This document shows positions 9,901 to 36,726 of a DNA stretch of 64,000 nucleotides, in pieces. Every line of letters begins with the position of its first letter. Position 1 is the stretch's first letter. The notes beneath the pieces are model-generated. The model searched no databases. It saw only the letters and a list, made by a program, of their open reading frames with translations, and was not told the DNA's origin. The position numbers were made by a program, and so were the translations under genes. Source of the DNA: Trueperaceae bacterium. GTDB lineage: Bacteria; Deinococcota; Deinococci; Deinococcales; Trueperaceae. The DNA is taken from positions 800,001-864,000 of the forward strand of contig CBDCDZ010000004.1 of assembly GCA_965215565.1 (NCBI GenBank), written 5' to 3'.

Positions 9901-10890
9901 ATTTTCGCGCCCTTCATCTACCGCAAAATCGGCGACTCGTACGCCGCTCTGATCTCTCCTCTCTTCAAGGAGATGCTAGAAGCGCACGAGCCGCATCCCG
10001 ATTACCGACAAGGCGACGCCTGGGATTGGGATAAAGTCGTGTCGAAGGTGCAAGAGCAGCACGGCAGCGTGCAAGGTCTGGACTTCATCCCGCAAGAGGT
10101 CAGAGACGTGCTAGTCTGCGCTCACGACATCTCACCCGAAGACCACGTCAAGATGCAGGGCACCGTGCAGAGCGCCTTTGATGCGGGCGGCGAGATGGTG
10201 GCGAACAGCATCTCGAAGACGATCAACATGCCCAACGAGGCGACCGTGAAAGAGGTCTATAACGCCTACAGCTTAGCCTTCGAGACGGGCTGTAAAGGGA
10301 TCACGGTCTATAGAGATGGCAGCAGGCAGTTCCAAGTCCTGAGTACGAAAAAAGAGGAGAAGAAAGCCAAGACTGCTTCAGCGAAACCTAAAGCTGCACC
10401 TGCAAATGCGCCTGTTACCAAGGACTCCCGCTTACCCGGCGAGCCCCTCTTCGACCGCCCCTGCCGTTTAGTCGGCTTTACCGACAACGTCAAGCTTACG
10501 ATGTCCTCGGGCGAGCGCCGGAGCTTTTACATCACCATCAACAAACAAGATGACCTGCCGACTGAGGTTTTCATTCAGTCGGGCAAAGGTGGCGAAGAGA
10601 TCATGGCGGACTCCGAGGCGCTCGGTCGACTCGCCTCGATTGCGCTTCAGTACGGCGTACCCGCCGAGGCGATCGTGAAGACGCTGCGCGGTATCAACGG
10701 CGGTATGTACGGCACCTATCAGGGGCGCATGGTGGCGTCGAAAGCGGACCTCATCGCGGTGGCGTTAGAGAGCGCTGGTGTCGCAAATGAGCTAAACAAA
10801 GGGCTCGCTTGCCCCGACTGCGGCGCTCCCCTGCGCTTCGAGGAGGGGTGCCAGAAGTGCGAAAGCTGCGGTTACAGCAAATGCTCATGA
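6925..10890 (+). CDS. nrdJ: Class II (adenosylcobalamin-dependent) ribonucleotide reductase with intein
   Basis: PGGRVLAGA, NCFV, TNPCGEIPL catalytic loop, RRLGLGVMG, APTGT, KGITVYRDGSR, TSCPD-like domain and C-terminal CxxC..EGCxxCxxCGYSKC. Confidence 0.95.
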   Translation: MDKPASARPLNFDDHAVAIAKRQYFQPGDEGLEGLFGRVASWVASPEGTKFSEGKGENQAHYEGAFYDLMASKRFCPGGRVLAGANTSHGNVLNCFVQDGSPEAPGTDAWVLGLATKLALVTKVGGGNGLCLDPLKPKRPYTQAVGNLFVTVSSSHPDYAKVKSGTYMDLVHGKYVTKGYRYAEFLELDDVDAGMNVREVGDSVESIWQGAGEMIQTLLRGEDVVLDLSRLRSEGTPVKGSGGTSSGPSSFAVEVFDNFAYWASLGGAEYAGPIATLRYIFAPTLRVIRQGGCLHPDTLVHTSRGTLRLSELVDSYQYGWQDHALKVATDEGWKDSPRGFNNGNAETLKVTLGNGQEIQGTSNHKLKVMCENGERQWVKLEDLREGDFVIQVLDQHTGTSVTLSSVEASTLHHNAKRITTPETLNERLAFFLGYLWGDGFVSGNRVGFAVSHNSPMIEETPKLFAELFGLEVRLEQKENDKSAIFVASSAALVQWLERNGLVKGRAKDLVLPRAIRQAPRPVLGAFLRGLFEADGTVTVGYPTLASASKQLVQEVAVMLGGLGIPTTLRGVAARTDRYSKGPYYHVKVVSAKGHKRFLGRIGMMAGSRFEALKAFQPNTARESSWALPHASALLQGAFDALPAGVKGRPSPYTQARKTLSRYIRGERQLTATGFERLEQDTLIADKLPEFAFDEFYTPVKSIQIGGRILTLDLSVDENRTYLANGMVSHNTRRGAGMATMSATHPDIQDFVTCKDLAREEAEGDISTFNISVLVTDDFMRRSKGRSGGTLHDVAEHAWQTGEPGLIFIDRINEFNPVRESLGDIKATNPCGEIPLFPGEPCDLGAINLAQYVETPSQGTNGFNWTDFRQDVKTCIRFLDNVLEVNKFALEDNRTMSMKLRRLGLGVMGLADALIKMGLTYNSQAGRDAVKEVITELRENATAASQELAEERGVFPGLASSSVAEPRRNIALLTVAPTGTTSMLMGVSSGVEPIFAPFIYRKIGDSYAALISPLFKEMLEAHEPHPDYRQGDAWDWDKVVSKVQEQHGSVQGLDFIPQEVRDVLVCAHDISPEDHVKMQGTVQSAFDAGGEMVANSISKTINMPNEATVKEVYNAYSLAFETGCKGITVYRDGSRQFQVLSTKKEEKKAKTASAKPKAAPANAPVTKDSRLPGEPLFDRPCRLVGFTDNVKLTMSSGERRSFYITINKQDDLPTEVFIQSGKGGEEIMADSEALGRLASIALQYGVPAEAIVKTLRGINGGMYGTYQGRMVASKADLIAVALESAGVANELNKGLACPDCGAPLRFEEGCQKCESCGYSKCS
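7801..9114 (+). mobile_element. Intein (438 aa) with LAGLIDADG homing endonuclease in NrdJ
   Basis: QGG|CLHPDT...MVSHN|TRRGAG junctions; block B TSNHK; FLGYLWGDG and FLRGLFEADG motifs. Confidence 0.95.
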
Positions 10891-10898
10891 ACTTCGGA

Positions 10899-10966
10899 TG
10901 TAGCGAGGGAATAAAGTCCGATACACGGGAATAAAGTCCGATACAAAGTAAAAAAGTCCAATACGG
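10899..10966 (+). repeat. Tn7-like end with three contiguous TnsB sites (right-end type)
   Basis: 8-bp terminus, then 20-bp units at 10907, 10927 and 10947 (GGGAATAAAGTCCGATACA-like). Confidence 0.92.
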
Positions 10967-11168
10967 ACTTGAGAGAATGATGAGCGCTTTTCAGTTGGCG
11001 AACCAAGTTGTGCATAGTTCATCGTTAGAGTTAAAAGCAGTCTACCTTCTTCTCAACTGAAGGGGTAGACTGCTCGCTAGTAATCTGTAGGTCTGCCGAA
11101 AGGTATAGCCGTTCAAGGAGCTCAAGGAGATTGTTCGGAAACCTACCACTTAGGGGCAAGCGCCATTT

Positions 11169-14100
11169 ATGAATGTGGACGAAACCAGAATAGTTAATCT
11201 GAAACCAGCCATTGATCAAATTAGGCAACGGCTCCATAGCGGGCAGGCGGCAGCTATGGTCGGAGCTGGCTTCAGCCTCAACGCCACAAAGAAATCAAAG
11301 GATGCCCCGAAGTTTCCGCTATGGAGCGACTTAACGGATCAAATTTTCCATCAGGTATATCCAGATTTTCCTAAAGACAACGACCATTTGAGCCACGAAC
11401 AGATCGCGTCCAAAGCGCGAAAGACATCTGATTTCTTGAGGCTCGCCCAAGACTTTGAGAATAACGATAGAAGTAAGTTAGATGCATTTCTCGAAAAAGC
11501 TATACCTGACAGAGACTACAACCCGGGAGAGCTACATAAGCAACTCCTGAACTTGCCCTGGGCTGACATCTTCACGACAAACCAGGATACGTTGCTCGAG
11601 AGAACCACTGGCTTCATTCAGCGGTATTACAGCGAAGTTTTGTCAGAAAAAGCCTTATCTTCTGCCGCACCCCCGCGAATTGTCAAGTTGCACGGAACTC
11701 TAGGGCACAACAATTATATCTTCACGGAACGCGACTTCGACAACTATCCTACCCACCATGAAGCGTTCGTCAGCTACGTCCAGACTTCACGGGCGATCAA
11801 TACGTTTTGCCTTTTTGGTTTTTCTGGTGATGACCCTAACTTCAAGAAGTGGAACAATTGGGTCTTGAATGTTATGGCAAATCACGCACCTCAGGTGTAC
11901 CTCATCGGCCTTCTTAACCTAAGTAAACAGGATAAAAATTACTGGCGAGACAGGAAAGTCGTTCCAATAGACCTCTCAGTCCTTTTCCAGCCAGGACAAA
12001 AGCCAGACCATGCGCTTGCCCTCGAATGGTTTCTAAACGAACTCCGAGACGAAAAGGGAGGGTCAGTCGTTGAAAAAGACGGCACGGAAGAAAGCGAAGA
12101 TGATGCGCCACTTCTCTCTTGGCCTAATGTACCGGGAGCGGCCAACACTAGACTTTACATGCCTGAGCCTTACGGAAAGGACCTGACGCATGATCAGCTA
12201 AAGGAGATTGCATTGCACTGGCGTAAGCAGCGGTTGTCCTATCCCGGCTGGCTCATTACTCCGCGTGCAAATAGAGAAAATTTGTGGTCTCTAACAGAGA
12301 TGTGGGTTGATCCAGTCTTCCAAGCTGCGCAAGATATGGATGTATCCGAAGCTATCTTAGTGCTTCATGAACTGTGCTGGCGTATTCGTCAATCGCTATT
12401 CCCTTTTCTTATCGATCATGCCAAAATCATTGCTGACAGGCTCGAAACTCTTAATCCGTTTCCTGATAACCCTGAATTAAGCGGCTCTGAAGTTGTACGC
12501 GGCAACGAAGCATTTGCTGAGCTGGACTGGAAGGTGTTGGAAGAGGCTTGGCTCGAGCTTGCTTTCGTGGTGGCGCAAGAGGCTAGAGAGGACCTAGACG
12601 AGCAGAGATTCACTGTATGGATGACAAGATTGGAGAGCGTCATCCCTAAAAATGGCGACTGGTATCACCGTTGGCACCACGAACAATGCTTAATGGCGCT
12701 CTATAAGTTAAACCAGAACAGCCTCGAGCAGCATCTAGGTGAATGGATCGTTCCCGAAGCAGATTTCGTTTGGTCACTCAGGAAGTCTGCCCTCTATGCT
12801 GAGCTAGGGCAAATCAAAACGGCAACGAAGTCTTTGGAGAAGAGCCTAACGACAATTGAAGAGGCCAATGAGAAGGAAGAAGACATACACATAGGACTTC
12901 TTTCTGCGGAAAGTTGGACACTATTCGCCCTCAACGGTATAAAACGGGCTGAAAGAATTTTTCCTAATGACACAGAGTGGCAATATAAATATTCCGCTCG
13001 CCGAGAAGCACTCAAAGCGTACAGATGCGACCCCGGTGACGAGATAGATTTCCTAAGCCAAAAGGTAAGCGGCCTGCTCCCTCAGGAGAAACCAGAAGAG
13101 ACCATCAAGCATGAATTTGACCCTGGAAGGGTGACAACGACAAAGCACTTCGGACATCCATCGTCTATCGTAGATAGGCGTCACGCCTTTGCGCTGCTAA
13201 CCCTACCTGAGCACGCTGGTATTCCTGTGCGCAGCGGCAGCGTGCGGTTTTTGAAGAATGCAGAGCAAGCGGCACAGTGGATTTGGCCTTCTGCCCCTTT
13301 GTGGGCGTTAAGTGCATATATCCGTAATGGTTACGACCACAATAAGCGGGTTGATCAGTGGCTTACACGGGTTGAGGTTGCGGGTATAGCGCAAGGTGTC
13401 GCTGATGCCAGCTTCCGCATGTTCGTCCCTGCACTAAAGCAAGTGATAAGATTATTGCCTACCGAACCGCCGAGACGGAGCAGCTTTTCAGAAGAGATAG
13501 TTGTCGCCCTTGGGGAAGTGCTTTCTCGCTTAACGGTCCTCTTCTCTCCGCAGCAACTTGAAGAGCTTTTGGATGTCACTTTAGCGATGTACGAGAGCCC
13601 GGCGTTCCAAAAGGATTTTCGCCTTTACAGTGTAGTTGAGAAGTTTTTAAGGCGTGTCTTGCTAGCCCTCCCGAATACCGAACTTACCCAGCGCCTACCG
13701 GAAATTCTAAGCCTCACCTTTCCTGGAGATAAACACTCCCTAGTTGACGACATGGCGTCAGGAAACTGGCCCGAGCCCGTCAATTACATCCAATGGGATT
13801 TGCTAAATGAAGAGCTCATTGATAAGAAGGGTTCCGAGTGGGTTAGCGTGATAAGCAAGCTCACGACTGACGTTGAACATGGGTCTTCTCAAGTTAGGTC
13901 TCGAGTGGCGAGCAGGTTAGAGAAGCTTTCAAGTGCAAACCTATTGACCTCCGACCAGAAACAAGCCTTTGGCAAAGCGCTCTGGTCAAGGACATACGAG
14001 ACCCTAGACCTTCCTTCAGAAACGGAGTTCACCCCTTACGGTTTTATGGTCCTGCCAGCTCCCGAGCCCAGACGCGCAGTTGAAAGCCTGCGCTCCTACA

Positions 14101-15101
14101 TAAAGGACAACGATTTCCCTCGACTCTTCTCCTATGAGGAACCTAAAGCATCTCCCGTTAGTCATTTGACAAGGGAGGGCAAACCCGACCTCTACTACAG
14201 CCGTAACCGTAAAACAGAGAATCTCATCAATGCTTGGAAATATGCTTCAAAACGTCCCATAGATACTCTCGTGAGAAAAGATGCTTACCTTATCGAATGG
14301 TCGCCTGAGGAAGCCAGCGAACTCTTCGATAAGATTCTCACCTGGTGGCGGTGCGAAAAAGATGACGTTTTAGAAGCGAAGGTAAAAATCGCTTTTAAAG
14401 ACGAAATTCAGAATAGGATTCATGAGGTTCTTTATATCGTCGGGCATACGATTCTTCCACATTTCAAGGCGAGTGAAGAGAGCGAGAAAAGCAAGGTTTT
14501 CGACTTTTTAGAGGACCTGGAGAATTCTGATTTCGTTGTTCTCTCACCTCTGCCGATGACACTCTATCTAAACAGTTCGAAAGAGCGGCAAAGGCAATTA
14601 ACAGACAAACTCCGTAGGGGTATTCATAGCCAAGCTAAAGAAGAAGTCAGTGAAGCTCTGCAAAGTACGATGGATTGGTTAGCCTACGCCGCACTTGGTG
14701 AGCTTCCCGAAGCACCCCAGACTGTCCTCGAAGACGTCGCTCTAAAATTGGTTGCTCGGCGTGGACCTAAGCTTCGGTCTACAATTCAGATACTGACTTG
14801 GATTATCAGATTTGTCCCGCAAGTTCTAGGTGAGGTTTCGCTGAGATACATTCTCATTGCCCTTCAGTTTTTGCTCGAGGAGACGACAACCGCGCACGAG
14901 ATAAAATCAGCTCACACCCCTATTTCGGCTGAAGAGATACCTCACCTCCGAGTAGAGGCGGCTAAATTAGCGAGTGAGCTTTACCGCTATTACGGCGAGT
15001 GTGGAAGAGAAATGCCTGAGATACTGCAAGAGTGGCAGCAGATATCTTTTGAGGACCCACTTCCAGAAGTAAGAAAAGCTTTTTCTACGACTCAGAACTA
15101 G
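11169..15101 (+). CDS. SIR2-domain defence protein (Dsr1-like defence-associated sirtuin)
   Basis: N-terminal SIR2-like motifs VGAGFS, FTTNQD, KLHG, FGFSGDDPNF followed by about 1000 aa of probably helical sequence; AT-richer than the host genes. Confidence 0.8.
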   Translation: MNVDETRIVNLKPAIDQIRQRLHSGQAAAMVGAGFSLNATKKSKDAPKFPLWSDLTDQIFHQVYPDFPKDNDHLSHEQIASKARKTSDFLRLAQDFENNDRSKLDAFLEKAIPDRDYNPGELHKQLLNLPWADIFTTNQDTLLERTTGFIQRYYSEVLSEKALSSAAPPRIVKLHGTLGHNNYIFTERDFDNYPTHHEAFVSYVQTSRAINTFCLFGFSGDDPNFKKWNNWVLNVMANHAPQVYLIGLLNLSKQDKNYWRDRKVVPIDLSVLFQPGQKPDHALALEWFLNELRDEKGGSVVEKDGTEESEDDAPLLSWPNVPGAANTRLYMPEPYGKDLTHDQLKEIALHWRKQRLSYPGWLITPRANRENLWSLTEMWVDPVFQAAQDMDVSEAILVLHELCWRIRQSLFPFLIDHAKIIADRLETLNPFPDNPELSGSEVVRGNEAFAELDWKVLEEAWLELAFVVAQEAREDLDEQRFTVWMTRLESVIPKNGDWYHRWHHEQCLMALYKLNQNSLEQHLGEWIVPEADFVWSLRKSALYAELGQIKTATKSLEKSLTTIEEANEKEEDIHIGLLSAESWTLFALNGIKRAERIFPNDTEWQYKYSARREALKAYRCDPGDEIDFLSQKVSGLLPQEKPEETIKHEFDPGRVTTTKHFGHPSSIVDRRHAFALLTLPEHAGIPVRSGSVRFLKNAEQAAQWIWPSAPLWALSAYIRNGYDHNKRVDQWLTRVEVAGIAQGVADASFRMFVPALKQVIRLLPTEPPRRSSFSEEIVVALGEVLSRLTVLFSPQQLEELLDVTLAMYESPAFQKDFRLYSVVEKFLRRVLLALPNTELTQRLPEILSLTFPGDKHSLVDDMASGNWPEPVNYIQWDLLNEELIDKKGSEWVSVISKLTTDVEHGSSQVRSRVASRLEKLSSANLLTSDQKQAFGKALWSRTYETLDLPSETEFTPYGFMVLPAPEPRRAVESLRSYIKDNDFPRLFSYEEPKASPVSHLTREGKPDLYYSRNRKTENLINAWKYASKRPIDTLVRKDAYLIEWSPEEASELFDKILTWWRCEKDDVLEAKVKIAFKDEIQNRIHEVLYIVGHTILPHFKASEESEKSKVFDFLEDLENSDFVVLSPLPMTLYLNSSKERQRQLTDKLRRGIHSQAKEEVSEALQSTMDWLAYAALGELPEAPQTVLEDVALKLVARRGPKLRSTIQILTWIIRFVPQVLGEVSLRYILIALQFLLEETTTAHEIKSAHTPISAEEIPHLRVEAAKLASELYRYYGECGREMPEILQEWQQISFEDPLPEVRKAFSTTQN

Positions 15102-15107
15102 CGAGGG

Positions 15108-17651
15108 TCAAGCGAGAAGGCGGTGCACCACCGCATCGAGCAACTGCTCCGCGTCCCCCTGCGCCCGCTTTAGCCCCTCCTCCAGCGCGTCAATCAGCCC
15201 CATAAGCTCATCCACCTTAGCAACGATGCGTTTTTGTTCGTTGAGGGGCGGGAGAGGAAATACAAAGTTTTTTATGGACTTAACACCTACGTTTGCCTGA
15301 GTGGTTTTATTAGGCTCTGTTGAAATTCTTCAGTACTAGTTGTTAGAAAAGGGCATGAGCGACGTAAGAATCAAGGCTAAGCAGTGGACTAAAATCAAGG
15401 CATTCTTAGATGAGAACCCGCAGGTGTATGTAGGACAGGAGAAGCAGTGCCGTAAATTTGTTGAAGGGGTACTGTGGATGTTGCGTTCGGGTGCACAGTG
15501 GCGACTTCTCCCCCCGAGGTATGGCAATTGGAACAGTGTGTATAAGCGTTTTGACAGATGGAGTGAACGAGGCATCTGGAAGGAAATGTTTGAGCACTTT
15601 GCTGATGATCCCGATATGGAAAGTGTGATGATGGACGGCAGTGTCGTGCGAGCCCATGCGTGTTCGGCAGGTGCGCCCCATAAAAAAGGGGTCAAGAAGA
15701 ACAACACCTCGGCTATAGTCGCGGCGGGTTCAGTAGCAAGATACACGTCTTAGTCGATGCTTTAGGCAATCCGTTGCGGCTCTTACTCAGTGCCGGACAA
15801 GCGCACGAAGCGCCTTATGCCAAAGCCTTACTCGCAGACTATGAGGTTGAATTTGTGTTTGGTGACAAAGCCTATGACGCTGAAGCTATCCTCACGACTA
15901 TCGCTGAGATGGACGCCGAAGCGGTCATTCCACCCAAAAGCAACCGCAAAGAGCAGCGCGATTATGACGAAGAACTGTACAAAGAGCGTCACCTAGTTGA
16001 ATGCTTTTTCAACAAGCTCAAGCAGTATAGGCGCTGCTTCTCACGCTTCGATAAGTTCGCTCGTAACTACCTCGGCTTCTTACACTTCGCCTCGGCTCTC
16101 ATCTGGTTGCGGTGAAATGTCAACACAACCTAGTATATCTTGCGATCTCATTTTTTACAAGTCCAGACAACGAATAAAAGTAGATATATCTTGGCTCTAC
16201 GTGTCCCTTTAAGTTCTTGACAACTGCGCACGAGTAAGACGCAAGAAAGTCTATATCCGTTTCAACGAGTCCATTCTCTCCAATAGTGCCATAACGGGGG
16301 AAATGATGTCATCTCTCTTAGGCTGTATCTTACGACTCAACCGCTCAAAGTCGGTATTAGAAATTTTCTTTGCTGTTGAAAAGTTGATCTCGTTGTCCCC
16401 CGTAAAATCTCGAGGAGATACATAAGGTACGCCTTCTCTTACCTCTTCCGGCATCTTATGATCTACATCTCCTATTTGAAGCGAAACTTCATCCCATCTA
16501 CACCAGCGCCAAGTATTTGGTATTCGTATGGAAGTTTCGTCAGAACTAACTGGAGTTAAACCCTTTGTTTTTCGTATCTTTCCCTCTTCAACTAATTTTG
16601 CTTTCTCAGCTTCTATGCTCTCGAGCAACACTCCCGCCGGTTCATCCTCCGGGTCTTGGGGCACGAGCTTCCCCTGCACCGCCAGTTGCAACACCGCCTT
16701 GCGCAACGCCGCGACGCCCCCCGGCGCAGCGCACAAGAGGTCGAAGTTGTCCCGCACGCGCCGCCAGCTCCCCGCAAACGTATCCGCGTCCTCTGCGCTC
16801 AGGAGAGAGCTTAGCGCCGCGCCGCCGAACCTCATGCGGGCGTCCCTTTTGGCGCGTCCTTGCGCCTCGAGCCTGTCTATAAGCCCCATAAGCTCGTCCA
16901 CTTTGGCGACGATGCGTTTTTGTTCCTCGAGGGGTGGGAGGGGGAACAGAAGTGTATTTAGCTTGCCCTGATAAATCGCTGCAACATTAGTCGTATTTGA
17001 TTTGAGAAGGTCTAGTAGACTTTTACCCGAGGGAGACTGAAACCAGAGATTAGCAAAAGCATTATTAACACCCGGTCCGAAAATAACTTTAAGAATATTG
17101 TTGTTGAACAGCCAAATTTCTCCTGTCGGATTGAGAAATACACACGTTTTACCTACCAGCTCGAAGCTATTTCTCGTGTTGAAAAGAAAATCACCTTCAG
17201 ATAACTTGTACTTCTCAAGCTCTTCCTGGCTGGCATCGACTTTGGTAATGTCGCTAAAATCACACAACCCTGTTGTAGAAATATTGTTCATTTTGAAATA
17301 TGGGTAGTTGTTGCTTTCAGATTGTAAACGTTTTGCGCGTTCTAAGCCTGTGTGAGAATCGAGTTTTATAGATTCGAAATCTACCCAAACCCAAGATTGT
17401 GGAAGACAGAATGGACCATCAACCGACTCTGGAGTGAATAACTTTGATTTCCGAATCTGCTTATTCTGTATCTGGTTATATTTCTCTAACGTTAGTTTGC
17501 GAACTAACGCTGAGGCAGACTCATCACTCGGGTCTTGTTCGACTAACTTCCCCTGCACCGCAAGCTGCAACACCAGCTCGCGCAGCTTCTTGGCGGCGTT
17601 GGGCGCGTCGGTCAAGAGGTCGAAGTGGCGCTCTAAGGTCTCAGGCGTCAT
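15108..17651 (-). pseudogene. hsdS: Type I RM specificity subunit, disrupted in TRD2 by a 1-nt deletion (about 16300) and an IS insertion
   Basis: LQLAVQGKLV twice and PLPPLxEQKRIVAKVDELM twice; the 3' piece at 15108-15312 rejoins in frame when the IS and one TA are removed. Confidence 0.9.
15313..16130 (+). mobile_element. IS5-family (IS427-like) insertion sequence, 818 bp, copy 1
   Basis: IRs GGCTCTGTTGAAATT / AATGTCAACACAACC, TA duplication; orfA 15355-15753 and orfB ending 16115 joined by an AAAAAAGGGG slippery site; YKERHLVECFFNKLK motif. Confidence 0.93.
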
Positions 17652-18006
17652 CGTCAGCGCGTCCTTCTTCAGTTTGGTCTAACGCGCTTTGCAGCTCGGG
17701 CAAGAGCACAGGGATTTCGTTCTCGACCACATCCCACACGGTCTCCAAGCGGATGCCGAAGTAGTGGTGCGCCAGCACGTCACGAAACCGCGCTAGGCTG
17801 CGCCAGGGGATAGCGGGGTGCTGCTCGCGCACCTCGGCGGGGATGTTTTTGGCAGCTTCCCCCATGATTTGCAGGTTGTGAAGGGTCGCGTCTATGACCT
17901 GTTCGTCGCCTCGGAACCTCTCAAAGTCGTAGCCCTGAGTATAGCGCTGTACCTTTTGCGCTGCGCCCCGCATGTCCTCCAAAAAGAGGCGGGTGCTACG
18001 CGGCAT
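17641..18006 (-). CDS. HEPN (DUF86/HepT-like) RNase toxin
   Basis: IMGEAAK...IPWRSLARFRDVLAHHY containing the RX4H motif. Confidence 0.9.
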   Translation of the reverse strand: MPRSTRLFLEDMRGAAQKVQRYTQGYDFERFRGDEQVIDATLHNLQIMGEAAKNIPAEVREQHPAIPWRSLARFRDVLAHHYFGIRLETVWDVVENEIPVLLPELQSALDQTEEGRADDDA

Positions 18007-18307
18007 GGATGGTCAGTAAGTCCTGCTGTACCTCTTCGGTGACGTGAGGGTTCAGCGTGCCTTGCGTCGCCAAGTCCACCTTGCAGCCTAAGAGGTCTTC
18101 CAGGTAGAGCAGTGCGCCCGTGTACTGCCGAAAGGTCGGAGCGCTGCCGAAGTCCGCCAAGAGGTCTACGTCGCTCTCGGCGCTGCGCTGGTCTCTAGCG
18201 GTTGAGCCGAAGAGCGACAAGCTGCGAACGCCGTAGCGGGATTCTAGGACGTTAAGGTGTTCGCGCAGCGTTTGGATGATGTGTTCGCGCTTTAGCTCAC
18301 CTGTCAT
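17996..18307 (-). CDS. Minimal nucleotidyltransferase (MNT) antitoxin
   Basis: LFGSTARDQRSAESDVD (GSX10DXD), KVDL; overlaps the HEPN gene. Confidence 0.9.
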   Translation of the reverse strand: MTGELKREHIIQTLREHLNVLESRYGVRSLSLFGSTARDQRSAESDVDLLADFGSAPTFRQYTGALLYLEDLLGCKVDLATQGTLNPHVTEEVQQDLLTIHAA

Positions 18308-18536
18308 AATTTGTGCGGCGCTCCATCCCCCTTAGCAGTTCCTTCTGCGCCTTCGGGTCGTGCATAGGCTCCGCGAACGCTTCCCAGAGGGCGATGGTCT
18401 CTTCGATGCGTTGCGCCTCTGTATTCTGGTCTATGTCCTGACCCGCTTCGATGTCTTCCAATGCAGCGGCGAGTCTGAAAAGGGCACTATCGTCAAGCTG
18501 GTCTATCTTTCTGCGTAACTGTTCTCTCACGGTCAT
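18297..18536 (-). CDS. Small hypothetical protein (79 aa), overlapping hsdM and the MNT gene
   Basis: Overlaps both neighbours; helical, antitoxin-like composition. Confidence 0.65.
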   Translation of the reverse strand: MTVREQLRRKIDQLDDSALFRLAAALEDIEAGQDIDQNTEAQRIEETIALWEAFAEPMHDPKAQKELLRGMERRTNYDR

Positions 18537-20002: not shown

Positions 20003-20097
20003 GGGGTATCTTATAACGTGGGCTCGAGGTATGATCGCGACTTCTTTTTGTAGTGTGAAAGCGCTTGCTGGCTCACGTATAATTGAACCTATCTGCT

Positions 20098-23310: not shown

Positions 23311-23342
23311 CCCCATCTAATTTACCAGCGCACTTAACATCT

Positions 23343-25941: not shown

Positions 25942-25956
25942 TAAGGAGGTAGGGGA

Positions 25957-26205: not shown

Positions 26206-26209
26206 CGTC

Positions 26210-26461: not shown

Positions 26462-26522
26462 AGGAGGGAGGGACGAGTCTCGAGCGCTGCTATTTCGACA
26501 AGGTATCGTAAGGGAGAGAGCT

Positions 26523-27056
26523 TTGCCGATAACGCTCAACGGTATTTCCGTTCATGCCCGCTCTGACGACGTTGAACGTCGAGCGCTCGCACGATGCGGT
26601 CATCTCTTCTTGAGGAAGCCGATAACTTTGTTGCTCGATGATCGACCCGGCTACGCTTTAGAGGCGCTTCCTTCGCTAGCTAGACCCATATTGCTTGTCA
26701 CCGCGAACCGCTCGCCCCACTACCTCCTGGACCTGCTTGACGAGCAGCCGGAGGGTCTGCTGGTGACGCGAGCACTGCCGCCGAATCTAATTTGCCACCT
26801 TATGCGGGTAGCAGCAGGGGAGCGTTTCTACGAGGGTCCGCCGCCTAGTCAAACGCTCCTGACACCGCGCGAGCGCGAGGTGCTGCGACGCACGATGTAC
26901 GGGGAGAGCATCGAGGCATTGGCGCGGTCGCTCGGCATCATTCCCTACACCGCAGGAGAACACCTCAGGCACATCATGGAGAAACTCGGTGTGGAGCGCA
27001 GTGTCGAACTGGCTTTGGCTTACTTCGCTGGGGACACAGCCCAGCTTGTCGTATGA
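26523..27056 (+). CDS. LuxR-type HTH regulator with degenerate receiver-like N-terminus
   Basis: VAAGERF...LTPREREVL...HIMEKLGV. Confidence 0.75.
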   Translation: MPITLNGISVHARSDDVERRALARCGHLFLRKPITLLLDDRPGYALEALPSLARPILLVTANRSPHYLLDLLDEQPEGLLVTRALPPNLICHLMRVAAGERFYEGPPPSQTLLTPREREVLRRTMYGESIEALARSLGIIPYTAGEHLRHIMEKLGVERSVELALAYFAGDTAQLVV

Positions 27057-27328
27057 GGAAAACGACGAAGAACACCCCAGAGGTACAGGACTATCGCCTT
27101 AGCGAACTCGAGCGTGATTACGAAGCTATGACGAAGCAGATTTACCGCATGGCGCTGCGCCACGAAGATATCAGGCAGGAGGTCAGACAATCGAGGGAGG
27201 AGACAAAACGGGGATTGGATGATTTAGGTGATCTTCTACGTAGCCGCTCTTTCTGGACGATATTTACGCTCCTAGCTGGCCTCTTTTTTCTCGCTATCCT
27301 GATCGTTGAAATTCGCATGAGCCTGTAG
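27053..27328 (+). CDS. Small coiled-coil protein with C-terminal TM helix
   Basis: ATGA overlap with the upstream gene; FWTIFTLLAGLFFLAILIV. Confidence 0.65.
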   Translation: MRKTTKNTPEVQDYRLSELERDYEAMTKQIYRMALRHEDIRQEVRQSREETKRGLDDLGDLLRSRSFWTIFTLLAGLFFLAILIVEIRMSL

Positions 27329-27430
27329 CATCTGTACAACACCACCCACGCCGCTACAAAGCCCAACGCTCTTCTGAGGTGAACGTGAGCTGATTGAGTT
27401 GTGTCACTCCGATAAAGCAAAACTCTTTAC

Positions 27431-28417
27431 TTAGCCTACTTCTTCCTCTCGCTCGCGCATCTGTAAAATTGTCTCAAAAATAATGTCTTCATCGTCATCG
27501 ACTTGGATGTTTTGGCTTTCAAGATGGCAGACGGCTTCACGGAACTCTAACCCGCTCACCACCGGAAGAGATTTGGGTGCGCAAGGGAGAGGGAGGTAAA
27601 TGCGTAGTTTAGGTTCGAAATACCAATCGCGGTTCTCAATTCGTTCGTCGCCGCGGATGGTAAATCTACGCTTTTTGGTTTTAGAGTAGGGCGCGTCTAT
27701 CCAAGGTCTTATAGGATTGCGAAAGTAATCAACGTAGTTAAAGCGGGTGCTGAAACTTTGAGGCCGAGGCGCGCTAGGATACGCAAAAATAGCGTTCCTA
27801 CGGTAATTAGGGTTGTGATATCTATTAGATTCAGTTACCGGTTTCCGTCTTGCCAGATATCTGTAAAAGCTAGCTCGACTTATCCTCCATCTCCGACACA
27901 TTTCTTCGATAGAGAACCCCATGAACTTGTTTTGGTGGATTATATATCGATAGAGGTCCTCCCCAAGAGCTACTGGACGACCTCGGTTTCGAATATTCCA
28001 TCTTTTCTGGGTCAATAGACGATTGAGTCTTCTTTTCTCTCTTCGTCTCATTAACTTGAATAAGACTAGCGGCTTAGGTCCACTAACACCGCTCGGCAAC
28101 CACTTAGAAGTCAGATGAGTTAGGCACCGCCTAGCTCTTTGCTTTCCCAGCCTCTTCTTGATGCGGCCAAGTACCCAGACTTCAACCCGCTCAATTGTGC
28201 GACTCACTGTAGAGACCGCAACGCCGTATTGAGTTGCAAGCTCCGACAGAGAAGCAGGCTGCATCCAAAAGCGGTGTGTGAGCTTCGCCTGTTCAAGCGG
28301 GTCGAAAACAGACTGAGTTCCCCTCGTACCCTGTTGGCGAGCTTCAACATACTCATCGAGAAGTCTTTCTGCCTCCTCAACCGCTTCGGAGTAAAGATCA
28401 AATTCCCAAATTGCCAT
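27431..28417 (-). CDS. Hypothetical basic protein with two HTH motifs
   Basis: SLSELATQYGVAVSTVSRTI and RGRP...SIEEMCRRWRISRASFYRYL (resolvase-type HTH); divergent from tnsA. Confidence 0.7.
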   Translation of the reverse strand: MAIWEFDLYSEAVEEAERLLDEYVEARQQGTRGTQSVFDPLEQAKLTHRFWMQPASLSELATQYGVAVSTVSRTIERVEVWVLGRIKKRLGKQRARRCLTHLTSKWLPSGVSGPKPLVLFKLMRRREKRRLNRLLTQKRWNIRNRGRPVALGEDLYRYIIHQNKFMGFSIEEMCRRWRISRASFYRYLARRKPVTESNRYHNPNYRRNAIFAYPSAPRPQSFSTRFNYVDYFRNPIRPWIDAPYSKTKKRRFTIRGDERIENRDWYFEPKLRIYLPLPCAPKSLPVVSGLEFREAVCHLESQNIQVDDDEDIIFETILQMREREEEVG

Positions 28418-28911
28418 TCGTGGGCCCAACACACAACGATTCTACTAGATACTAGTCTTATGTGCAAAATAAGAAACTTTTCGAGACATATTGGAGAAGT
28501 CGTTTATCCACTCTCAAACTCGAAAACTCACTTAATAACGTAGTAATTTCAAGTACCACGCGGCAGAAAAGATGAGAGTAAGTACGTCCTAGACGCATTT
28601 GACAGCGTTTATGGAAGTCTGCTATGACTGTGTTAAAGGGCTAGGTGAAAAGAATGTAATAAGTACTTTTAGCGGCTTTTCAATATAGGAAATCTCGGTT
28701 ATTTGCAGTAACCGAGAAATCCAGATGATCTAATTTGCTTCCGACCTAGTGAGCAGCTTAGACCATCTGGACAGGTGCCGTCAACCCTCGAGAAAGGGAG
28801 TAAGGATGCTGTCCAAGTTAGGAAAAAACTTTTTCGTAGACGCTAATCTCAAGCAAAACGGAGTGCAAATTTACCAAGGGCTCGTTGCTGACGCCTCCAT
28901 TGCTGCTGTAA

Positions 28912-29790
28912 ATGCGGCCTCGCGCGGGTGCAAACCTCTACGGCAGGACCAGGGGCGTCATGCCACAAGGTAAGAAGCGTATGGATGCTGCAGAAGCGCA
29001 AGCAGCCCAGGATAAGGCGATTGCGAAGTGGCGTAAGACAGGCGATGGTCATGGTCAAAACTACGAACCGTGGCTCACCGTTAGAAGAGTGCCGTCGCAC
29101 GGCCGCGTCAGCCGGGTTCTTGGGCGAGTCACAGGCCGCGTGCACCACCTGATGAGCGACCTGGAGACGAACACGTTTTACGTCCTCGACGCTAGCGACA
29201 ACGTTCTCGACATCCGTGAGCAGTACCCCTTATTGCCGTTGGAGGAAACTCTCGAGATTGCAGAAGCCAACACCCTCAAGCATCCCAAACACCCCCGTTG
29301 GAAAGGACCAATTATCATGACGACTGATTTTCTAGTTACACGTGGCGGCGACCTCGGAGATTATCAGGAGGCGTGGTCCGTTAAGCCTTCGTCGGTGCTC
29401 AGTAACAAGCGAGCGCTCGAGAAACTTGAAATCGAAAGGCTGTTCTGGCAAGCTCGGTCAACACCTTGGTATCTGATTACAGAGCGTGAACTGCCCAAAG
29501 GACTGCTGCACAACCTGCGCTGGCTCGCCGCCGCGAGAGACCTGAGCGACTTCCACGTTCCTGCCGACAGGCTCGAGGGTGTACTAGACGAACTCTACCT
29601 CACAATCACTGTCTCCGACGAGCCGCTGGCTAGTTTGTGCAGCCAAATGGACGGGCGGCTCGGGTTACGTGCCGGGACGTCTCTGACAGCGGTGCGACAC
29701 GCTCTCGCGACGAAACGCTGGCACGTAGACCTCACGAAGGCGATTGACCCCGACCGGCCCTCACTGGGTCTCACCCGTATCGATGGATAA
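28912..29790 (+). CDS. tnsA: TnsA endonuclease
   Basis: GHGQNYEPWL, HHLMSDLE, DIREQYPLL, MTTDFL..SVKP, EKLEIER. Start may be 28960. Confidence 0.95.
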   Translation: MRPRAGANLYGRTRGVMPQGKKRMDAAEAQAAQDKAIAKWRKTGDGHGQNYEPWLTVRRVPSHGRVSRVLGRVTGRVHHLMSDLETNTFYVLDASDNVLDIREQYPLLPLEETLEIAEANTLKHPKHPRWKGPIIMTTDFLVTRGGDLGDYQEAWSVKPSSVLSNKRALEKLEIERLFWQARSTPWYLITERELPKGLLHNLRWLAAARDLSDFHVPADRLEGVLDELYLTITVSDEPLASLCSQMDGRLGLRAGTSLTAVRHALATKRWHVDLTKAIDPDRPSLGLTRIDG

Positions 29791-32116
29791 ACCCACTCTG
29801 TCGCCCTCGGTGAACGCCGGAACGAACGACCTTCCCGCAAAGCGCGATATCTTCGCGCTTAACGCCCTTTTCTATATCGTCGATCTCTCTCCCCCCGAAA
29901 AGGATAAGGAAAAGGAACACAAGTTCCAGCGTCTGCTCTGGGCAGTCCCGGATACCGAGCAACTGGTTATGATCGACGTGCCGACCACGAGCCCACCCTT
30001 CTGGATAACACGCAGCGCCCTGCTCTACGAACTCGACGAAGGCAACCTGGTGCTCCAAATGCAGGACCCGTTCGCGCCCCCATCTGTGCAGGAGGAGGAC
30101 CTCACGGAGAAAGAGCGCAACATCCGGGACCGCCGCTGGGCGCTTATCGAGCCACTCGTCACCGACGCGAAGCGCCGAATTTTCTATCCCGAGCACAGCG
30201 GGGCGCTCATCGCCGAGGCGAGTCGGGCGGGCAAAACCTGTCGCACCAACATGCACAAGTTCCTTCGCCTCTACTGGCAGGGCGGGCAGGTGCCAAACGC
30301 CCTCTTACCAGCATTTCACCGATGCGGTGGTCGGGGAAAGCCTAAGACGATTGACGAGGACAAACGAGGCCGACCGAGCAAATTGGCGTTGGTTGATGCG
30401 ACGCGCATCGGCATCAACATTACGAAGGAGCAAGCGGTAAAGTTGGTCGCAGGAGGGCGTAAGTTCATCGAAAAGATGGGTCTTTCGCAAAAGGCTGCCC
30501 ACCGCGAGACGATCCGCGTTTATTTTAGCGAGGGACTCGAGTGGCAAGACGGGAAGCTCGTCGCTATATTGCCAGAGGCGCACCTGCTGCCCACGTTCGA
30601 CCAGTTCATTTATCACTATGGAAAGGTGCGGTCCAACACGGACGCCGTGCGCATCCGTGTCGGGTCGAGGCGCTTCAACCTCCAACACCGGCCCGTGCTC
30701 GGTTCCTCAACAGATAACACGTTTGGTCCTGGTTCGGAGTACCAGGTTGACGCGACCGTCGGTGACCTTTACCTCCTGAGTAGGATTCTCAAGGGGCGCG
30801 TTATCGGGCGTCCTGTCATCTACCTCGTTATCGATAGCTTCTCTCGCATGGTCGTGGGCATCCATGTCGGTCTCGAGGGGCCGAGTTGGTTAGGTATGAT
30901 GCTCGCGCTCGAAAATGCCTTCACCGGCAAAGTGGATTTCTGCCGCCGCTTCGGGCGTGACATCACCGAGGACGAGTGGCCCTGTCATCACTTCCCCGAA
31001 ACCCTCTTAGGAGACCGCGGCGAGCTGATCAGCAAGCACGCGGATCAGCTTGTGAAAGCCTTCGGCATCCGCGTACCGAACACCGCGTCGTGGCGACCGG
31101 ACTGGAAACCCATCGTCGAGAGGAGCTTTCGGACGCTGAACGACGAGGTCATCGACTGGCAGCCCGGCGCGGTACATGAGGTGCGCGAGCGCGGCGAACC
31201 CGACTACCGGCTCGACGCGACCCTGACCCTCGAGGACTTCACCGAAATGCTGATCGTCCTTATCCTGCACTACAACCACAATCATTCCATCCAGGAGGAC
31301 ATGCTTCCCCTCGGGTTCCCCTACCCGGAGCACGGGAACCCGACGCCCATCGAGCTTTGGAACTGGGGCATCGAGCACCGGAGCGGATACCTGAGGATGG
31401 CGGACAGGACACGTGTACGCGCCAACCTCTTGCCCGCGAAGGAGGTCTCGGTGACGTCTCGCGGATTGAACTACCACGGCCAGCACTACGCGCCGCTCAG
31501 CCTCTTGGAGAATTACGGCGACGAGGACCCGGATGCGGCGCACTTCGAGAACTGGTTCCTGCGTAAGTTGGGGCGCAAGACCCGTAAGGTCGAACTCGCC
31601 GTCGATCCGCGTGACGTCTCTTTCGCCTATATCCGTCTCGAGCGTGGCCGCGTTCTCGTGCCCTGCGGCCTCCTGCGCGGCGACCGGCGCTTCGCCGGGA
31701 TGTCGTTCCAAGAGGTGATGGACGCGCGTGCTGTGAAAGCTATCAGCAACCAGGTGAATCAGACCGAAGTGCTCCGCGACTGGGCGGCGTTCCGCGCCGA
31801 GGTTGAGGCTATTGAAGAACGCGCCTGCAAGCAGCGGGACGACGCCTTGGGCAGCGCGAACACCCCTGCGAACGTCAAGAACATCCGCGAAACGCGCAGC
31901 GTCGAGCGGCGGGAGCTTCAGCGCGAAGGGGTCTGGTACTTGGGCGACGTCCCTCATACGGATGATGCCCCTGACGCAGCAGAAAACCCAGATCATCAAG
32001 CACCGTCGTCAGCGTCAGGCAGCGACGGTCAACAGGGCGGCTACGTCCCGCCGCCCTCGAACCTTGATTTGCTCACCGCCGCCAGAGCACGTAAGCAGGA
32101 AGAGGAGGCATCATGA
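29783..32116 (+). CDS. tnsB: TnsB DDE transposase
   Basis: GPGSEYQVDAT, GRPVIY..IDSFSR, LGDRGE, KPIVERSF; overlaps tnsA and tnsC. Confidence 0.95.
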   Translation: MDKPTLSPSVNAGTNDLPAKRDIFALNALFYIVDLSPPEKDKEKEHKFQRLLWAVPDTEQLVMIDVPTTSPPFWITRSALLYELDEGNLVLQMQDPFAPPSVQEEDLTEKERNIRDRRWALIEPLVTDAKRRIFYPEHSGALIAEASRAGKTCRTNMHKFLRLYWQGGQVPNALLPAFHRCGGRGKPKTIDEDKRGRPSKLALVDATRIGINITKEQAVKLVAGGRKFIEKMGLSQKAAHRETIRVYFSEGLEWQDGKLVAILPEAHLLPTFDQFIYHYGKVRSNTDAVRIRVGSRRFNLQHRPVLGSSTDNTFGPGSEYQVDATVGDLYLLSRILKGRVIGRPVIYLVIDSFSRMVVGIHVGLEGPSWLGMMLALENAFTGKVDFCRRFGRDITEDEWPCHHFPETLLGDRGELISKHADQLVKAFGIRVPNTASWRPDWKPIVERSFRTLNDEVIDWQPGAVHEVRERGEPDYRLDATLTLEDFTEMLIVLILHYNHNHSIQEDMLPLGFPYPEHGNPTPIELWNWGIEHRSGYLRMADRTRVRANLLPAKEVSVTSRGLNYHGQHYAPLSLLENYGDEDPDAAHFENWFLRKLGRKTRKVELAVDPRDVSFAYIRLERGRVLVPCGLLRGDRRFAGMSFQEVMDARAVKAISNQVNQTEVLRDWAAFRAEVEAIEERACKQRDDALGSANTPANVKNIRETRSVERRELQREGVWYLGDVPHTDDAPDAAENPDHQAPSSASGSDGQQGGYVPPPSNLDLLTAARARKQEEEAS

Positions 32117-34561
32117 ACGACAACTCAGGCGATTCACCCGAGCGCGACAGGTTACGCCAGCGCTTTCCAACCGCCGACTACCGCGAGCAGGCTGTCCGAA
32201 CCTACAACGGTAATCCTTTCATCGAAACCTTGCCAGCCATCCGTTCCGACGAGGATACCGCCGTCATGCTGATGCGCGACCTTGAATACTTCGATGAAGA
32301 CCGGGAACAACCCGTGGAGATACGTCAACATCTCCTCGCTCAGGTTCCGGGTTTCTACACGCCGCTGCCTGAGCCTCTCGAACTCGACGAGCGCCTGTCT
32401 CGGATGATCCGCATCGGCTACCTGGGCCGCAACCCCGTCGCGCCGAGCTTCCACACCAACTTTCGGAACGGCATTCATAACCTGTCGGTAGGGGTTGTGC
32501 GGCGCGTCCCGTGCACCGCTTGGACCTCGGCGACGGGCATGACGCTTATAGGTATCAGCGGCATCGGCAAATCAACGGCTCTCGAGGCGTCGCTCGACCT
32601 CTATCCTCAAGTGATACTCCACGATCAGTATCGTGGGCGTGTGCTGATGCGTAACCAGATCGTCTGGCTGAAATTGGAATGTCCCGGCGACAGCTCGATC
32701 AGAGGATTATGCATCAACTTCTTCAAAGCTGTTGACGAGCTGCTCGGTACAACGTACGCAAAAGAGTACGTGAAGTGGAACTCGACCGTAGAGACCCTCG
32801 TACCAGCTATGGCAACTGTGGCCTACCAGCACATCATCGGCGTCCTCGTCATCGACGAGGTGCAGAACCTCAGCGCCGCGAGTAGCGGTGGCAGAGATAA
32901 AATGCTGAACTTTTTTATCCAGCTTGTGAATACGATAGGGCTCCCTGTAGTGTTAGTAGGTACATACCGCGCGATGCCTATCCTAGGTAGACAGTTTCGA
33001 CAAGCCCGGCGCGGTGGGGGGCAGGGTGACTTTATTTGGGACCGCATGGCGTTCGGTCCGAAGTTTCGCCACTTCTGTGGTGACTTGTGGAAGTATCAGT
33101 ACGTCCGAAATCCTACACCGCTCACCGAACCTATGCTCGAAGCGCTGTACGACGAAAGCCAGGGGATCACCGACATCGTCGTCAAACTCTTCATCCTTGC
33201 GCAACACCGCGCTATGCGCACCGGGCGAGAGCGCCTAGAGCCGAACCTGATCGTTTCGGTCGCGATGGATAGCTTGCGGCTCGCACGCCCCATCATACAG
33301 GCGATCAAGCTCGGGGACAGAAGCGCCCTTGATAGACTAGGCTCTGTTGACATTCCCGAGGAATGGTTGTTAGAAAAGGGCATGAGCGACGTTAAACTAA
33401 CAGCTAAACAGTGGCGTAAAATCAGAGCGTTCCTAAATGAGAAGCCGCAAGTGTATGTAGGACAGGAGAAACAGTGCCGCAAGTTTATTGAAGGGGTGCT
33501 GTGGATATTGCGTTCAGGTGCACAGTGGCGACTTCTACCTCCTAAGTACGGAAACTGGAACAGTGTATACAAGCGTTTTGACAGGTGGAGCGAAAGGGGC
33601 ATTTGGGAAGCGATGTTCGAGCGCTTTGCCGATGACCCAGACCTGGAGAGCGTGATGATGGACGGCTCAGTGGTGCGGGCTCATGCGTGTTCGGCAGGTG
33701 CGCCACATAAAAAAGGGGTCAACAGATGCAAGACCTCGGCTATAGTCGGGGCGGGTTCAGCAGCAAGATACACGTCTTAGTCGACGGTTTGGGCAATCCG
33801 CTGCGGTTGTTACTCAGCGCTGGACAAAAACACGAAGCACCCTACGCCCAAGCCTTACTCGCAGACTATGAGGTCGCGTTCGTATTCGGTGATAAAGCCT
33901 ACGACGCTGACCCTATCCTTACAACTATTACTGAGATGGACGCGCAAGCAGTCATTCCACCTAAAAGCAACCGCAAAGAGCAACGCGACTACGACAAAGA
34001 ACTATACAAAGAGCGTCACCTCGTGGAGTGCTTTTTCAACAAGCTCAAGCAGTATAGGCGTTGCTTCTCAAGGTTCGACAAATTCGCAAGAAACTACCTC
34101 AGCTTTCTCCACTTCGCCTCTGCTCTCATCTGGTTACGGTGAAATGTCAACACAACCTAGATGATGTCCTACCTTTCAAGCTCGATGACCTTCTTCTAGC
34201 TCAGAAGAACGGATTTAACGAGACAAAAAGCCTAAAATTCCTGAAGGAGCTAAAGGACAAACCCGGTACGACGAAAGAGGATGAGGGTGTTGGTGCCCAA
34301 GCAGATGCGCCCCACGAACCATCGCCCTCCGAAACAGGGATGCCTCAAGCTACGCCTGAGCAAAGTGCTACCGAAGCGAACGGCGCTGGATCTGGAGCAC
34401 CTTCGGGAAAAAGGGTGAGTAACCAGTCACTAGTGGCGAGAGTGCTCGCCGGACGTAAGGATAAGCGGTCGGGACATAGCGTGCTTAAAACAGGCGGCGT
34501 CGTTCGCGACCTAGGTGCCGAGTTTCTACAACGCCATACGCAACAGCGCTACAGCAACTGA
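32113..34561 (+). pseudogene. tnsC: TnsC AAA+ ATPase interrupted by an IS5-family element
   Basis: GNPFIETLP, GISGIGKS, LVIDEVQNL; removing 33340-34159 restores ALDRL-DDVLPFKL in frame. Confidence 0.93.
33340..34157 (+). mobile_element. IS5-family (IS427-like) insertion sequence, 818 bp, copy 2
   Basis: IRs GGCTCTGTTGACATT / AATGTCAACACAACC, TA duplication, same two-ORF slippery-site layout; related but not identical to copy 1. Confidence 0.93.
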
Positions 34562-36477
34562 TGCTAGGTACGTTCCCAGAGCTTCTGCCCGACGAGCTTC
34601 TCTACAGTGGGTTTGCTAGGCACCAGGCTACGTTCGGTTACTTAGTAGGGACGCTTAAAAAGAGTCTCTTCAGCACCGTAAACGTTACGGCCACGATTGA
34701 TCTACCTGGGCATCTCGGGGCGTTCGTGTCGCGGTTACCTTCGGCAGATGTGTACTCAGTGGACTACCTGATTCGCAACCACACCATGCTCCCTTACTAT
34801 GAGCCTTTCGTCCCTGCCTCTCGCGCTTCGCTAGCGCGAGAGGCTATGTGCAGCAACCGGATTCGAGGCGTGCATTTTTACCTCAACGCGACACATAGTA
34901 CGCTCCCTAACCCACCTTTTCTTCGGTTCTGCAAGCTGTGTGCCGAAGAAAACCAGCGTGCGTATGGCGTCGCCTACTGGCACCGGACTCATCAAGCGCC
35001 GGGCGTCCTGATGTGTCCCACTCATAAGACTGGACTCGTCAACAGTTCAATTGAGCGGAGTCTTCGCAAAGAGCGGGGGAGGTACTACATGCTGTCCAAC
35101 GAAGTCATGGCAGCCAGCAGCGCCATCTCCGTACCAGAAAGCGAAGAAAGACATCTTCTACAAATCGCCGCAAACACCTCGTTCACCTTAAATGAGAGCG
35201 CAGTCGTCGGAGATTTGCAAAGGTTGCACGAACGTTACCGCTACTTTTTGAACCTTCGAGGCTGGATCGGTAAGTCCGGGCGTATACAGGCACAGGGTCT
35301 GGAAGAAGCCTTCGTTGAGTTCTACAGCGAAGCGTTCCTGGAGGCTCTCAAAACACCTGTGCTCAACGCGGGAACAGGTGACTCTTGGGTCGCGCGTTTG
35401 TTCCAGCTACCGGACCGGGCACATCCGCCTTTGCGTCACTTTCTCGCTATGGGCTTCCTCGGTTACTCAGCAGCAGAGGTTTACACGGGACTCCGCGAGG
35501 TGGGCAAAGAAGACGCAGACTCGGAAGAAATCCCTTCGGGTATGAGGGGCGCAGTATACTCGTCACCTTGCCGCAATCCCTTCTGCGACCGCTATGACAA
35601 AGAGAAGGTGCGGGCGACTAACGCTCCTGAGGGTGCTCCTCGTAAGGTTACCGTTAAGTGCCCTGAGTGCGGCTTCGCTTATGATTTTGACGCCAACTGC
35701 CCGAGAATCTACGCCATCCGCAACGTCGGACCACGATGGGAAGCGCACGTACGTCAGATGATTGCCGAAGGCGACAGGACGAAGTGCCAGATAGCGGAAG
35801 CTGCTGAAATCAGTCCAGACACATTTGACCGAGTTCTGGCGAGGTCCAATGTTGCTACTCCAGATTGGGCGGGTCCTAACAAGGGCGTGCCCTGGTCGGA
35901 TGAGGCGCGGCAGTGACGGCTCGAAAGAAGACAACAGGATTGTCGCGCCGAGTTCCTAGAAATGCGAAAAGCTCACCCCACCTACGGACGCAATGCCCTT
36001 AGGCAAGCTATTCCGAACGCTTATGTGTGGCTGATAAGGCATGACCGTGCTTGGTACGAGGTTCACGCGCCATCAAAGAAATACGTGAATAGTAACAACT
36101 ATGATTGGGGCGCTATTGACGAGGAGTTTGCTAAGCGCGTGCCTAAAATTGTTGAAGAGTTGAGGATGGAGCCCGGCTTTCCGAGGAAAATAACGCGGGC
36201 TGCGATTCGGACCAAGCTCAATCCCACTATTTATGCTCACCGACCTCGAGAAAAGTTGCCCAAAACCTGGGCGGCGGCTACCGCCGCAAGGGAAAGTAGG
36301 GAGGAGTGGCACTCGAGAAGGTGCGCCTGGGTTGCCGACCAATACATCCTGGAGGGTGTTGTTCCTACGCTTCGAGAATTCGTAGAGCGTGCAGCTTTGA
36401 AGAACGTGAGGAGTGCACGACTCTTCTCGGATGTCGATGCATACCTCCGACTTATCAAGTTGAAGGTTGCCTCTTAA
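34561..36477 (+). pseudogene. tnsD: TniQ/TnsD target selector split by an in-frame TGA at 35914-35916
   Basis: FPELLPDELLYS, CKLC..YWHRTHQ..CPTH Zn finger, second CxxxxC..CPEC; the 35962-36477 ORF is in the same frame and has TnsD C-terminal motifs (YVWLIRHDRAW, DWGAID, PRKIT). Confidence 0.9.
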
Positions 36478-36510
36478 TTCATACCGAAGATACTCATGAA
36501 AGTGATAAAC

Positions 36511-36651
36511 TTGTATCGGACTTTATTGCATCAAGAGAGGGTCCAATCAGAGCTGGTAGGTGTTTTTGTATCGAACTTTTACTACAACTGGTGATCGAGA
36601 AAGGCCCGTTATATGCTTCCAATTTATATCGGACTTTATTCCCTTGCTACA
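36511..36651 (-). repeat. Tn7-like end with three spaced TnsB sites (left-end type)
   Basis: Sites at 36511, 36566 and 36624 (TTGTATCGGACTTTATT-like), ending GCTACA. Confidence 0.92.
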
Positions 36652-36726
36652 CTTCGGATTTGATGACGGGAGTCTTTGTTGAAGATTGTCAGTAGAACAT
36701 CATATATTGAGTAGGACTCCCGTCAG

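Follow-up and report, generated by a model that had tools for sequence, protein, structure and literature searches.

A Tn7-like transposon directly behind nrdJ in a Trueperaceae genome and a probable attachment site for its TnsD

The analysed stretch of DNA (the window, 64,000 nucleotides) is C4:800001-864000 of a 4.49-Mb Trueperaceae genome (G000). It contains nrdJ, a class II ribonucleotide reductase gene, and immediately behind it a Tn7-like element of 25,753 bp with TGT...ACA termini (10899-36651). NrdJ scores 508 bits against TIGR02504, well above the cut-off of 400. The stop codon TGA occupies 10888-10890 and the TGT begins at 10899, which confirms the statement of an earlier note on this DNA that the terminus lies 8 bp past the stop. 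Also as described there, the end next to the gene carries the contiguous TnsB-type sites, three of them with a 20-bp spacing (10908, 10928 and 10948). The three sites of the far end are spaced apart (36624, 36566, which is weak, and 36511). The termini form a 25-bp inverted repeat with 96% complementarity (10899-10923 and 36627-36651). TGT...ACA termini with several TnsB-type sites, asymmetric between the two ends, are a hallmark of the Tn7 family. The exact 11-bp core of the TnsB site occurs at only four places in the genome, all within the ends of this element. The contiguous-site end and the 5' side of tnsA face nrdJ, the same orientation as in glmS-sited relatives.

The transposition genes are placed near the distal end in the order tnsA-tnsB-tnsC-tnsD and are transcribed towards it. 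They encode a TnsA nuclease, a DDE transposase TnsB, an AAA+ TnsC and one long TniQ-family selector, TnsD, and the expected TnsA, TnsB, TnsC and TniQ+TnsD domains were all found. The tnsC gene is split by an IS5 of 823 bp, an identical copy of which lies at another place in the genome, and tnsD is broken by an in-frame TGA. With both genes broken, this copy is, as far as its reading frames tell, unable to move on its own. Among the 20 open reading frames of the element scanned with Pfam, none matches the TnsE or Cas families, and the gene content is thus as the earlier note had it. No cas effector genes lie inside the ends and there is no array among the repeats of the element, as there would be in a CRISPR-associated transposon. 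The anatomy, position, orientation, gene content and decay of the element are established by the sequence. It is a TnsABC+TnsD transposon, and its clade is small and seldom sampled.

The mechanism that we consider probable is targeting by TnsD. The protein would bind the conserved EEGCxKCxxCG codons at the 3' coding end of nrdJ and load TnsC towards the stop codon, and TnsA and TnsB would insert the contiguous-site end 5-8 bp past it. In this way nrdJ would be left whole and the defence cargo delivered. TnsD retains the large TniQ+PF15978 architecture of the glmS-targeting TnsDs, with the zinc-ribbon region reshaped. Such an attachment site had been proposed in the earlier note, and it gains independent, if thin, support from an end relic in a related genome (G258), a metagenomic contig (X1), the TnsD branch and the conserved tail. 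For TnsD-dependent insertion at one fixed site, the observations comprise one whole element, one relic and one bridging contig. The nrdJ tail fits one degenerate 45-letter pattern with at most one mismatch in 99 of 128 family genomes (a count that takes in the unpublished genome G324, on which nothing else here depends; 98 of 127 without it).

According to the accessible text of Mitra 2010 (PMC2918618), the stretch bound by Tn7 TnsD extends from +23 to +58, counted from the middle of the duplication, and seven bases are essential. Transferred to nrdJ, this geometry would place the binding stretch at about 10837-10872. Of the tail proposed before (10840-10890), TnsD would then read the first part and not the YSKC codons with which it closes at 10890. 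A glmS look-alike in the nrdJ tail keeps precisely the Tn7 register, with its centre at 10896 and +23 at 10873, one base off the codon frame. It has four of the seven bases essential for Tn7 TnsD and 15 of 25 consensus letters, which places it among the best 0.15% of positions in the genome; allowing for about five possible registers, p is near 0.01. On a matrix of nine glmS sites it scores -3.9 bits compared with 43 for glmS, at rank 13,135 among 8.79 million positions. We read it as a possible clue to the beginnings of retargeting; as a true pseudo-site it is too weak.

The only solved structure with a sequence match to TnsD is residues 1-318 of Tn7 TnsD (PDB entry 8glu, E 1e-34), which is also a fold match. 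An AlphaFold model of low confidence (pLDDT 68, pTM 0.39) confirms the TnsD fold and nothing more. In a quick IQ-TREE phylogeny of 35 proteins, TnsD of the nrdJ element lies on a branch of 12 (SH-aLRT 99) that includes none of the six glmS-sited TnsDs. Proteins of G261, G051 and G018 were left out of this tree and included in a 23-protein set; a FastTree of that set, with G261 and G051 added, shows the same separation. In all eight glmS-sited TnsDs, the CxC(x)F knuckle in the central cysteine region is followed by a six-residue xxG[P/S]D loop. This loop is absent from all nine branch members that were aligned, and their four cysteines are in a different spacing. The C-terminal extension has been tied to site recognition in the accessible part of Faure 2023. 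The reshaped zinc-ribbon region is the likely seat of the changed site specificity, which the loop may set. The TnsDs of two other elements (G018:C68 and G076:C1; L174 and L044) also have no glmS-type loop. Each of these elements adjoins, with the opposite element end, one and the same membrane-protein gene at its 5' end, possibly a further attachment site.

Close relatives of TnsD are few. Three are 64-66% identical (P0002, P0003 and P0030) and four are 35-43% identical (P0004-P0007); the TnsB relatives, at 43-69% identity, show the same small clade. These clade relatives are ENA, Logan or JGI records, and genomic context is available for one of them, L064, a 3.8-kb contig with tnsC (65% identical), tnsD (39% identical) and the far end. 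The TnsD alignment gave no match in viral contigs, a best identity of 27% among plasmids, and distant matches in 5 of 351 Chloroflexota genomes, with no clade member among them. The earlier note had suggested mapping TnsD homologs to their loci. Those that could be mapped (25-36% identity) are elsewhere, mostly at glmS, and the 64-66% identical ones are outside the mapping. In one genome of the class (G260:C2:1204000-1277080) two or more Tn7-like elements follow glmS as a tandem array, and the junction that separates them is 4 bp long.

Other nrdJ loci supply further evidence. In G258, a genome of the same genus whose NrdJ is identical at 444 of 490 residues, a 14-mer resembling the element end lies 5 bp past the nrdJ stop. 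It matches the far end of L064 at 14 of 14 letters and the end of the nrdJ element at 13 of 14. As a control, none of 153,864 positions in 28 other nrdJ loci reached 12 of 14. The relic differs from the G000 end in its offset (5 compared with 8 bp) and at base 6, and therefore indicates a second insertion in G258. Beyond the 14-mer nothing of an element is left behind G258 nrdJ. The TnsB-site core was sought in G257, G258, G244, G259 and G262 and found in none of them. The only TnsA of G258 was considered as a remnant; it belongs to a decayed glmS element. From a metagenome run of another study (X1, 2019), a contig of 1028 nt aligns with 10289-10984, of which the last 86 letters belong to the element; a second contig of 210 nt matches 11030-11239 with 7 differences.

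Relic candidates were family nrdJ ends with TGT 2-16 bp past the stop. TGTA occurs within 30 bp of the nrdJ stop in 25 of 364 class genomes, where the best match besides G000 and G258 is 10/14. The 10/14 match of G244 runs into a palindrome and was not counted. In both G258 (L150) and G275 (L166) an end-like stub stands between the nrdJ stop codon and a hairpin. The spacer behind the nrdJ stop of G260, which belongs to another genus, resembles that of G000. Searching 131 class genomes for the end motif with two mismatches gave matches in 9, and a control pattern was equally frequent. In viral contigs the exact end motif matched once, by chance, inside a phage reading frame, and the nrdJ tail followed by TGTAG matched six times (best 10/14), none of these being an element end. 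A true empty nrdJ allele was also sought, and none was found; of the metagenome runs, X4 (same species label) leaves the locus uncovered and X2 is probably the source sample.

Several observations weigh against targeting of nrdJ. There is a single complete element at nrdJ, and L064, the only clade relative with DNA context, shows the far end alone. Seven other genomes of the class have a TnsD match (8 matches at 25-36% identity; 364 genomes), none of them at nrdJ, and five of these eight matches are behind glmS: G260 (two, tandem), G261, G113 and G051. Within the fetched stretches of 36 loci from genome and metagenome scans nrdJ is absent; three of these loci carry glmS at the element end. Of about 99 family nrdJ ends a clear relic is present in G258 only, with none in G257 and a weak match in G275 (10/14 at offset 8, 8 terminal letters exact). 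The 1028-nt contig of X1 has 83 differing letters and 23 gaps, whose positions are not displayed. The flanking duplication is 7 bp rather than the 5 bp of the Tn7 family. Concerning the mapped loci, the TnsD relatives are so distant that a different site is expected, and their positions therefore neither support nor refute nrdJ targeting.

That TnsD has its primary site elsewhere, glmS-like or of another kind, and that nrdJ is an occasional secondary look-alike, seems unlikely to us. The nrdJ tail does resemble a glmS site in the exact Tn7 register, and most mappable TnsD relatives target glmS. However, many thousands of genome positions score as well as this look-alike, the TnsD branch is separate from the glmS-sited TnsDs and without their loop, and within this genome the end motif of the clade is confined to the nrdJ element, with no copy at glmS. 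We regard as rather unlikely a single untargeted or ancestral insertion behind nrdJ, from which the G258 relic and the X1 contig would both descend. G258 belongs to the same genus, the spacers that precede TGT agree at 4 of 5 letters, and a 3-bp deletion could account for the offset; such descent would also fit the DNA downstream of nrdJ, which is unlike in each of the three genomes of the genus. But fourfold sites of the G000 and G258 nrdJ genes are only 62% identical (131/210), which makes 13/14 by neutral descent from one old insertion improbable (p about 0.013). The relic moreover fits the L064 end better than either end of the nrdJ element, and distance and orientation match a TnsD-directed insertion. 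That a different TniQ, or a Cascade module, of the genome directed the insertion in trans is most improbable: the genome has four other TniQ loci, one of them beside type I-E cas genes, but their TnsBs are at most 40% identical and their ends are not shared, 15 kb at the cas locus showed no repeat array, and the element has its own full-length tnsD.

The flanking duplication needs separate consideration. The target-site duplication of the Tn7 family is 5 bp (accessible parts of Mitra 2010, PMC2918618, and Correa 2024, PMC11014353), and the TGT and ACA ends of the nrdJ element are compatible with no 5-bp duplication at its flanks. Among relatives with both ends located, L057 and L077 have a 5-bp duplication, L055 shows no match and the tandem junction of G260 is 4 bp; irregular flanks therefore do occur. 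A 5-bp duplication is typical of the family, and deviation from it is not enough to exclude the nrdJ element, whose 7 bp may be secondary. We see about even odds for a 7-bp stagger of TnsB and for recombination of two alleles inserted 2 bp apart. In the latter case an allele duplicated at +2..+6 would have recombined with one duplicated at +4..+8 to give the 7-bp overlap. Some room is left for repair slippage as a further source. A tandem insertion with a later deletion, derived by hand, yields no 7-bp overlap.

A more far-reaching scheme combines a move from glmS to nrdJ by way of the in-register look-alike and the reshaped loop, a 7-bp TnsB stagger, and one selector that provides both a safe harbour and, without TnsE, a route by plasmid-borne nrdJ; as a whole we find it doubtful. 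One selector could serve both safe harbour and mobile DNA because nrdJ also rides on plasmids (pOCEPR01). Oceanithermus and Deinococcus are among the best plasmid matches to the NrdJ C-terminus, which suggests a host in class Deinococci. pOCEPR01, a conjugative Oceanithermus plasmid, carries nrdJ with a related tail (L186:3856-6639) and no element behind it.

Other transposon loci occur in the same genome. At G000:C4:1548889-1557913 (L198:3890-12923) tnsA, an IS-split tnsB-like gene, tniB, cse2, cas7, cas6e and an opposite-strand TniQ gene (254 aa) form one block, which by its gene content looks like a type I-E CRISPR-associated transposon. A decayed Tn7-like element stands 25 bp behind glmS (G000:C4:1895780-1901200), and its spacer may hold the stub of an older end. 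Two more TnsB-like/TniB/TniQ loci with long TniQs are at G000:C4:3019345-3024474 and 3708887-3712707. Inside nrdJ itself the LAGLIDADG intein lies at 7800-9115; there is no intein at the equivalent place in G257, and G258 has a different insertion. The cargo of the nrdJ element is defensive, with a Dsr2-like sirtuin, type I restriction-modification (R-M), a nucleotidyltransferase-HepT pair and a NACHT-HEAT protein (Table 1). Beyond the distal end, 36659-39800 is low in GC; besides IS fragments, it contains a fusion of an Mrr-like nuclease with an IrrE-type domain.

Table 1. Positions of nrdJ, the element ends and the element genes in the window
Feature	Position	Strand	Remark
nrdJ, host gene and probable target; class II (B12) ribonucleotide reductase containing a LAGLIDADG intein	6925..10890	+	TIGR02504
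Predicted TnsD-binding stretch (+23 to +58, Tn7 geometry), codons FEEGCQKCESCG	10837..10872	+	mapped from Mitra 2010
Left copy of 7-bp flanking duplication CTTCGGA	10892..10898	+	
nrdJ-proximal end (right end by Tn7 convention): TGT terminus, three contiguous TnsB-type sites	10899..10966	+	
Dsr2-like sirtuin	11169..15101	+	PADLOC 715 bits; below NCBIfam cut-off
IS5-family copy, 85% identical to the tnsC copy	15311..16133	.	interrupts type I specificity gene (hsdS)
Type I R-M specificity subunit (5' part)	16251..17651	-	
Nucleotidyltransferase + HepT-like pair	17641..18307	-	
Type I methyltransferase	18533..20002	-	
NACHT + HEAT/LRV-repeat protein	20083..23310	+	between hsdM and hsdR
Type I restriction subunit (EcoEI-like)	23343..25691	-	
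Small HTH/LuxR-type regulators + HTH-repeat ORF	25957..28432	.	
tnsA	28912..29790	+	PF08722, PF08721
tnsB	29783..32116	+	open frame with DDE-type motifs
tnsC (AAA+)	32113..34561	+	split by IS5 at about 33338-34160
tnsD (TniQ PF06527 + PF15978), 638 codons	34561..36477	+	in-frame TGA 35914-35916
Distal end (left end by convention): spaced TnsB-type sites, ACA terminus	36511..36651	-	
Right copy of 7-bp duplication CTTCGGA	36652..36658	+	

If nrdJ is an attachment site, it would complete a set, with Tn7-family selectors at all three classes of ribonucleotide reductase. The conserved tail would then be usable as a landing pad across the host family in Deinococcota, and by comparing a glmS-type TnsD with the loop and the nrdJ-element TnsD without it one could test directly how the target of a protein selector is switched. 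A 7-bp stagger, if real, would be unusual for this transposase family. NrdB is the class I beta subunit and is unrelated to the zinc-finger tail of NrdJ.

A literature search, thin on subscription papers, found neither nrdJ as a Tn7-family site nor a 7-bp duplication. The accessible parts of Faure 2023, Benler 2021 and Hsieh and Peters 2023 do not mention nrdJ as a site. In the main text of Thesier 2025 (10.1101/2025.07.27.667033) 'nrdJ', 'class II' and 'B12' have no occurrence; its supplements may bear on nrdJ. The novelty claimed for the site thus stands for nrdJ itself, which was not found in print, but is smaller than supposed, as nrdB and nrdD sites have been published.

One of the closest known systems is Tn7 TnsABC+D with attTn7 (Mitra 2010, PMC2918618). 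Shared with it are the TGT...ACA ends, the TnsB sites, tnsABC with a large TnsD, and insertion past a conserved 3' coding end in a fixed orientation. The prototype has tnsE and inserts about 25 bp past glmS. In contrast, the target here is nrdJ, the end is 8 bp past the stop (24-27 bp for relatives sited at glmS), 7 bp are duplicated, tnsE is absent, and the stretch from the proximal end to tnsA is occupied by the cargo. Correa 2024 (PMC11014353), in its accessible part, reports nrdB as an attachment site of Tn7-like elements in Acinetobacter and Guyparkeria. Those elements likewise lie past a ribonucleotide reductase gene and were assigned from genomic position; the target gene sets the present element apart. 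In the accessible text of Thesier 2025 (10.1101/2025.07.27.667033), nrdB sites are cited and nrdD is the attachment site of Tn7-family elements of archaea, Agathobacter and Fusibacillus, with repeated independent origin noted by its authors. There too the attachment site is the 3' end of a ribonucleotide reductase gene. However, nrdD is class III, and the bacterial TniQs of those elements carry helicase-associated PF03457 domains, whereas TnsD of the nrdJ element carries PF15978 and has no PF03457 match.

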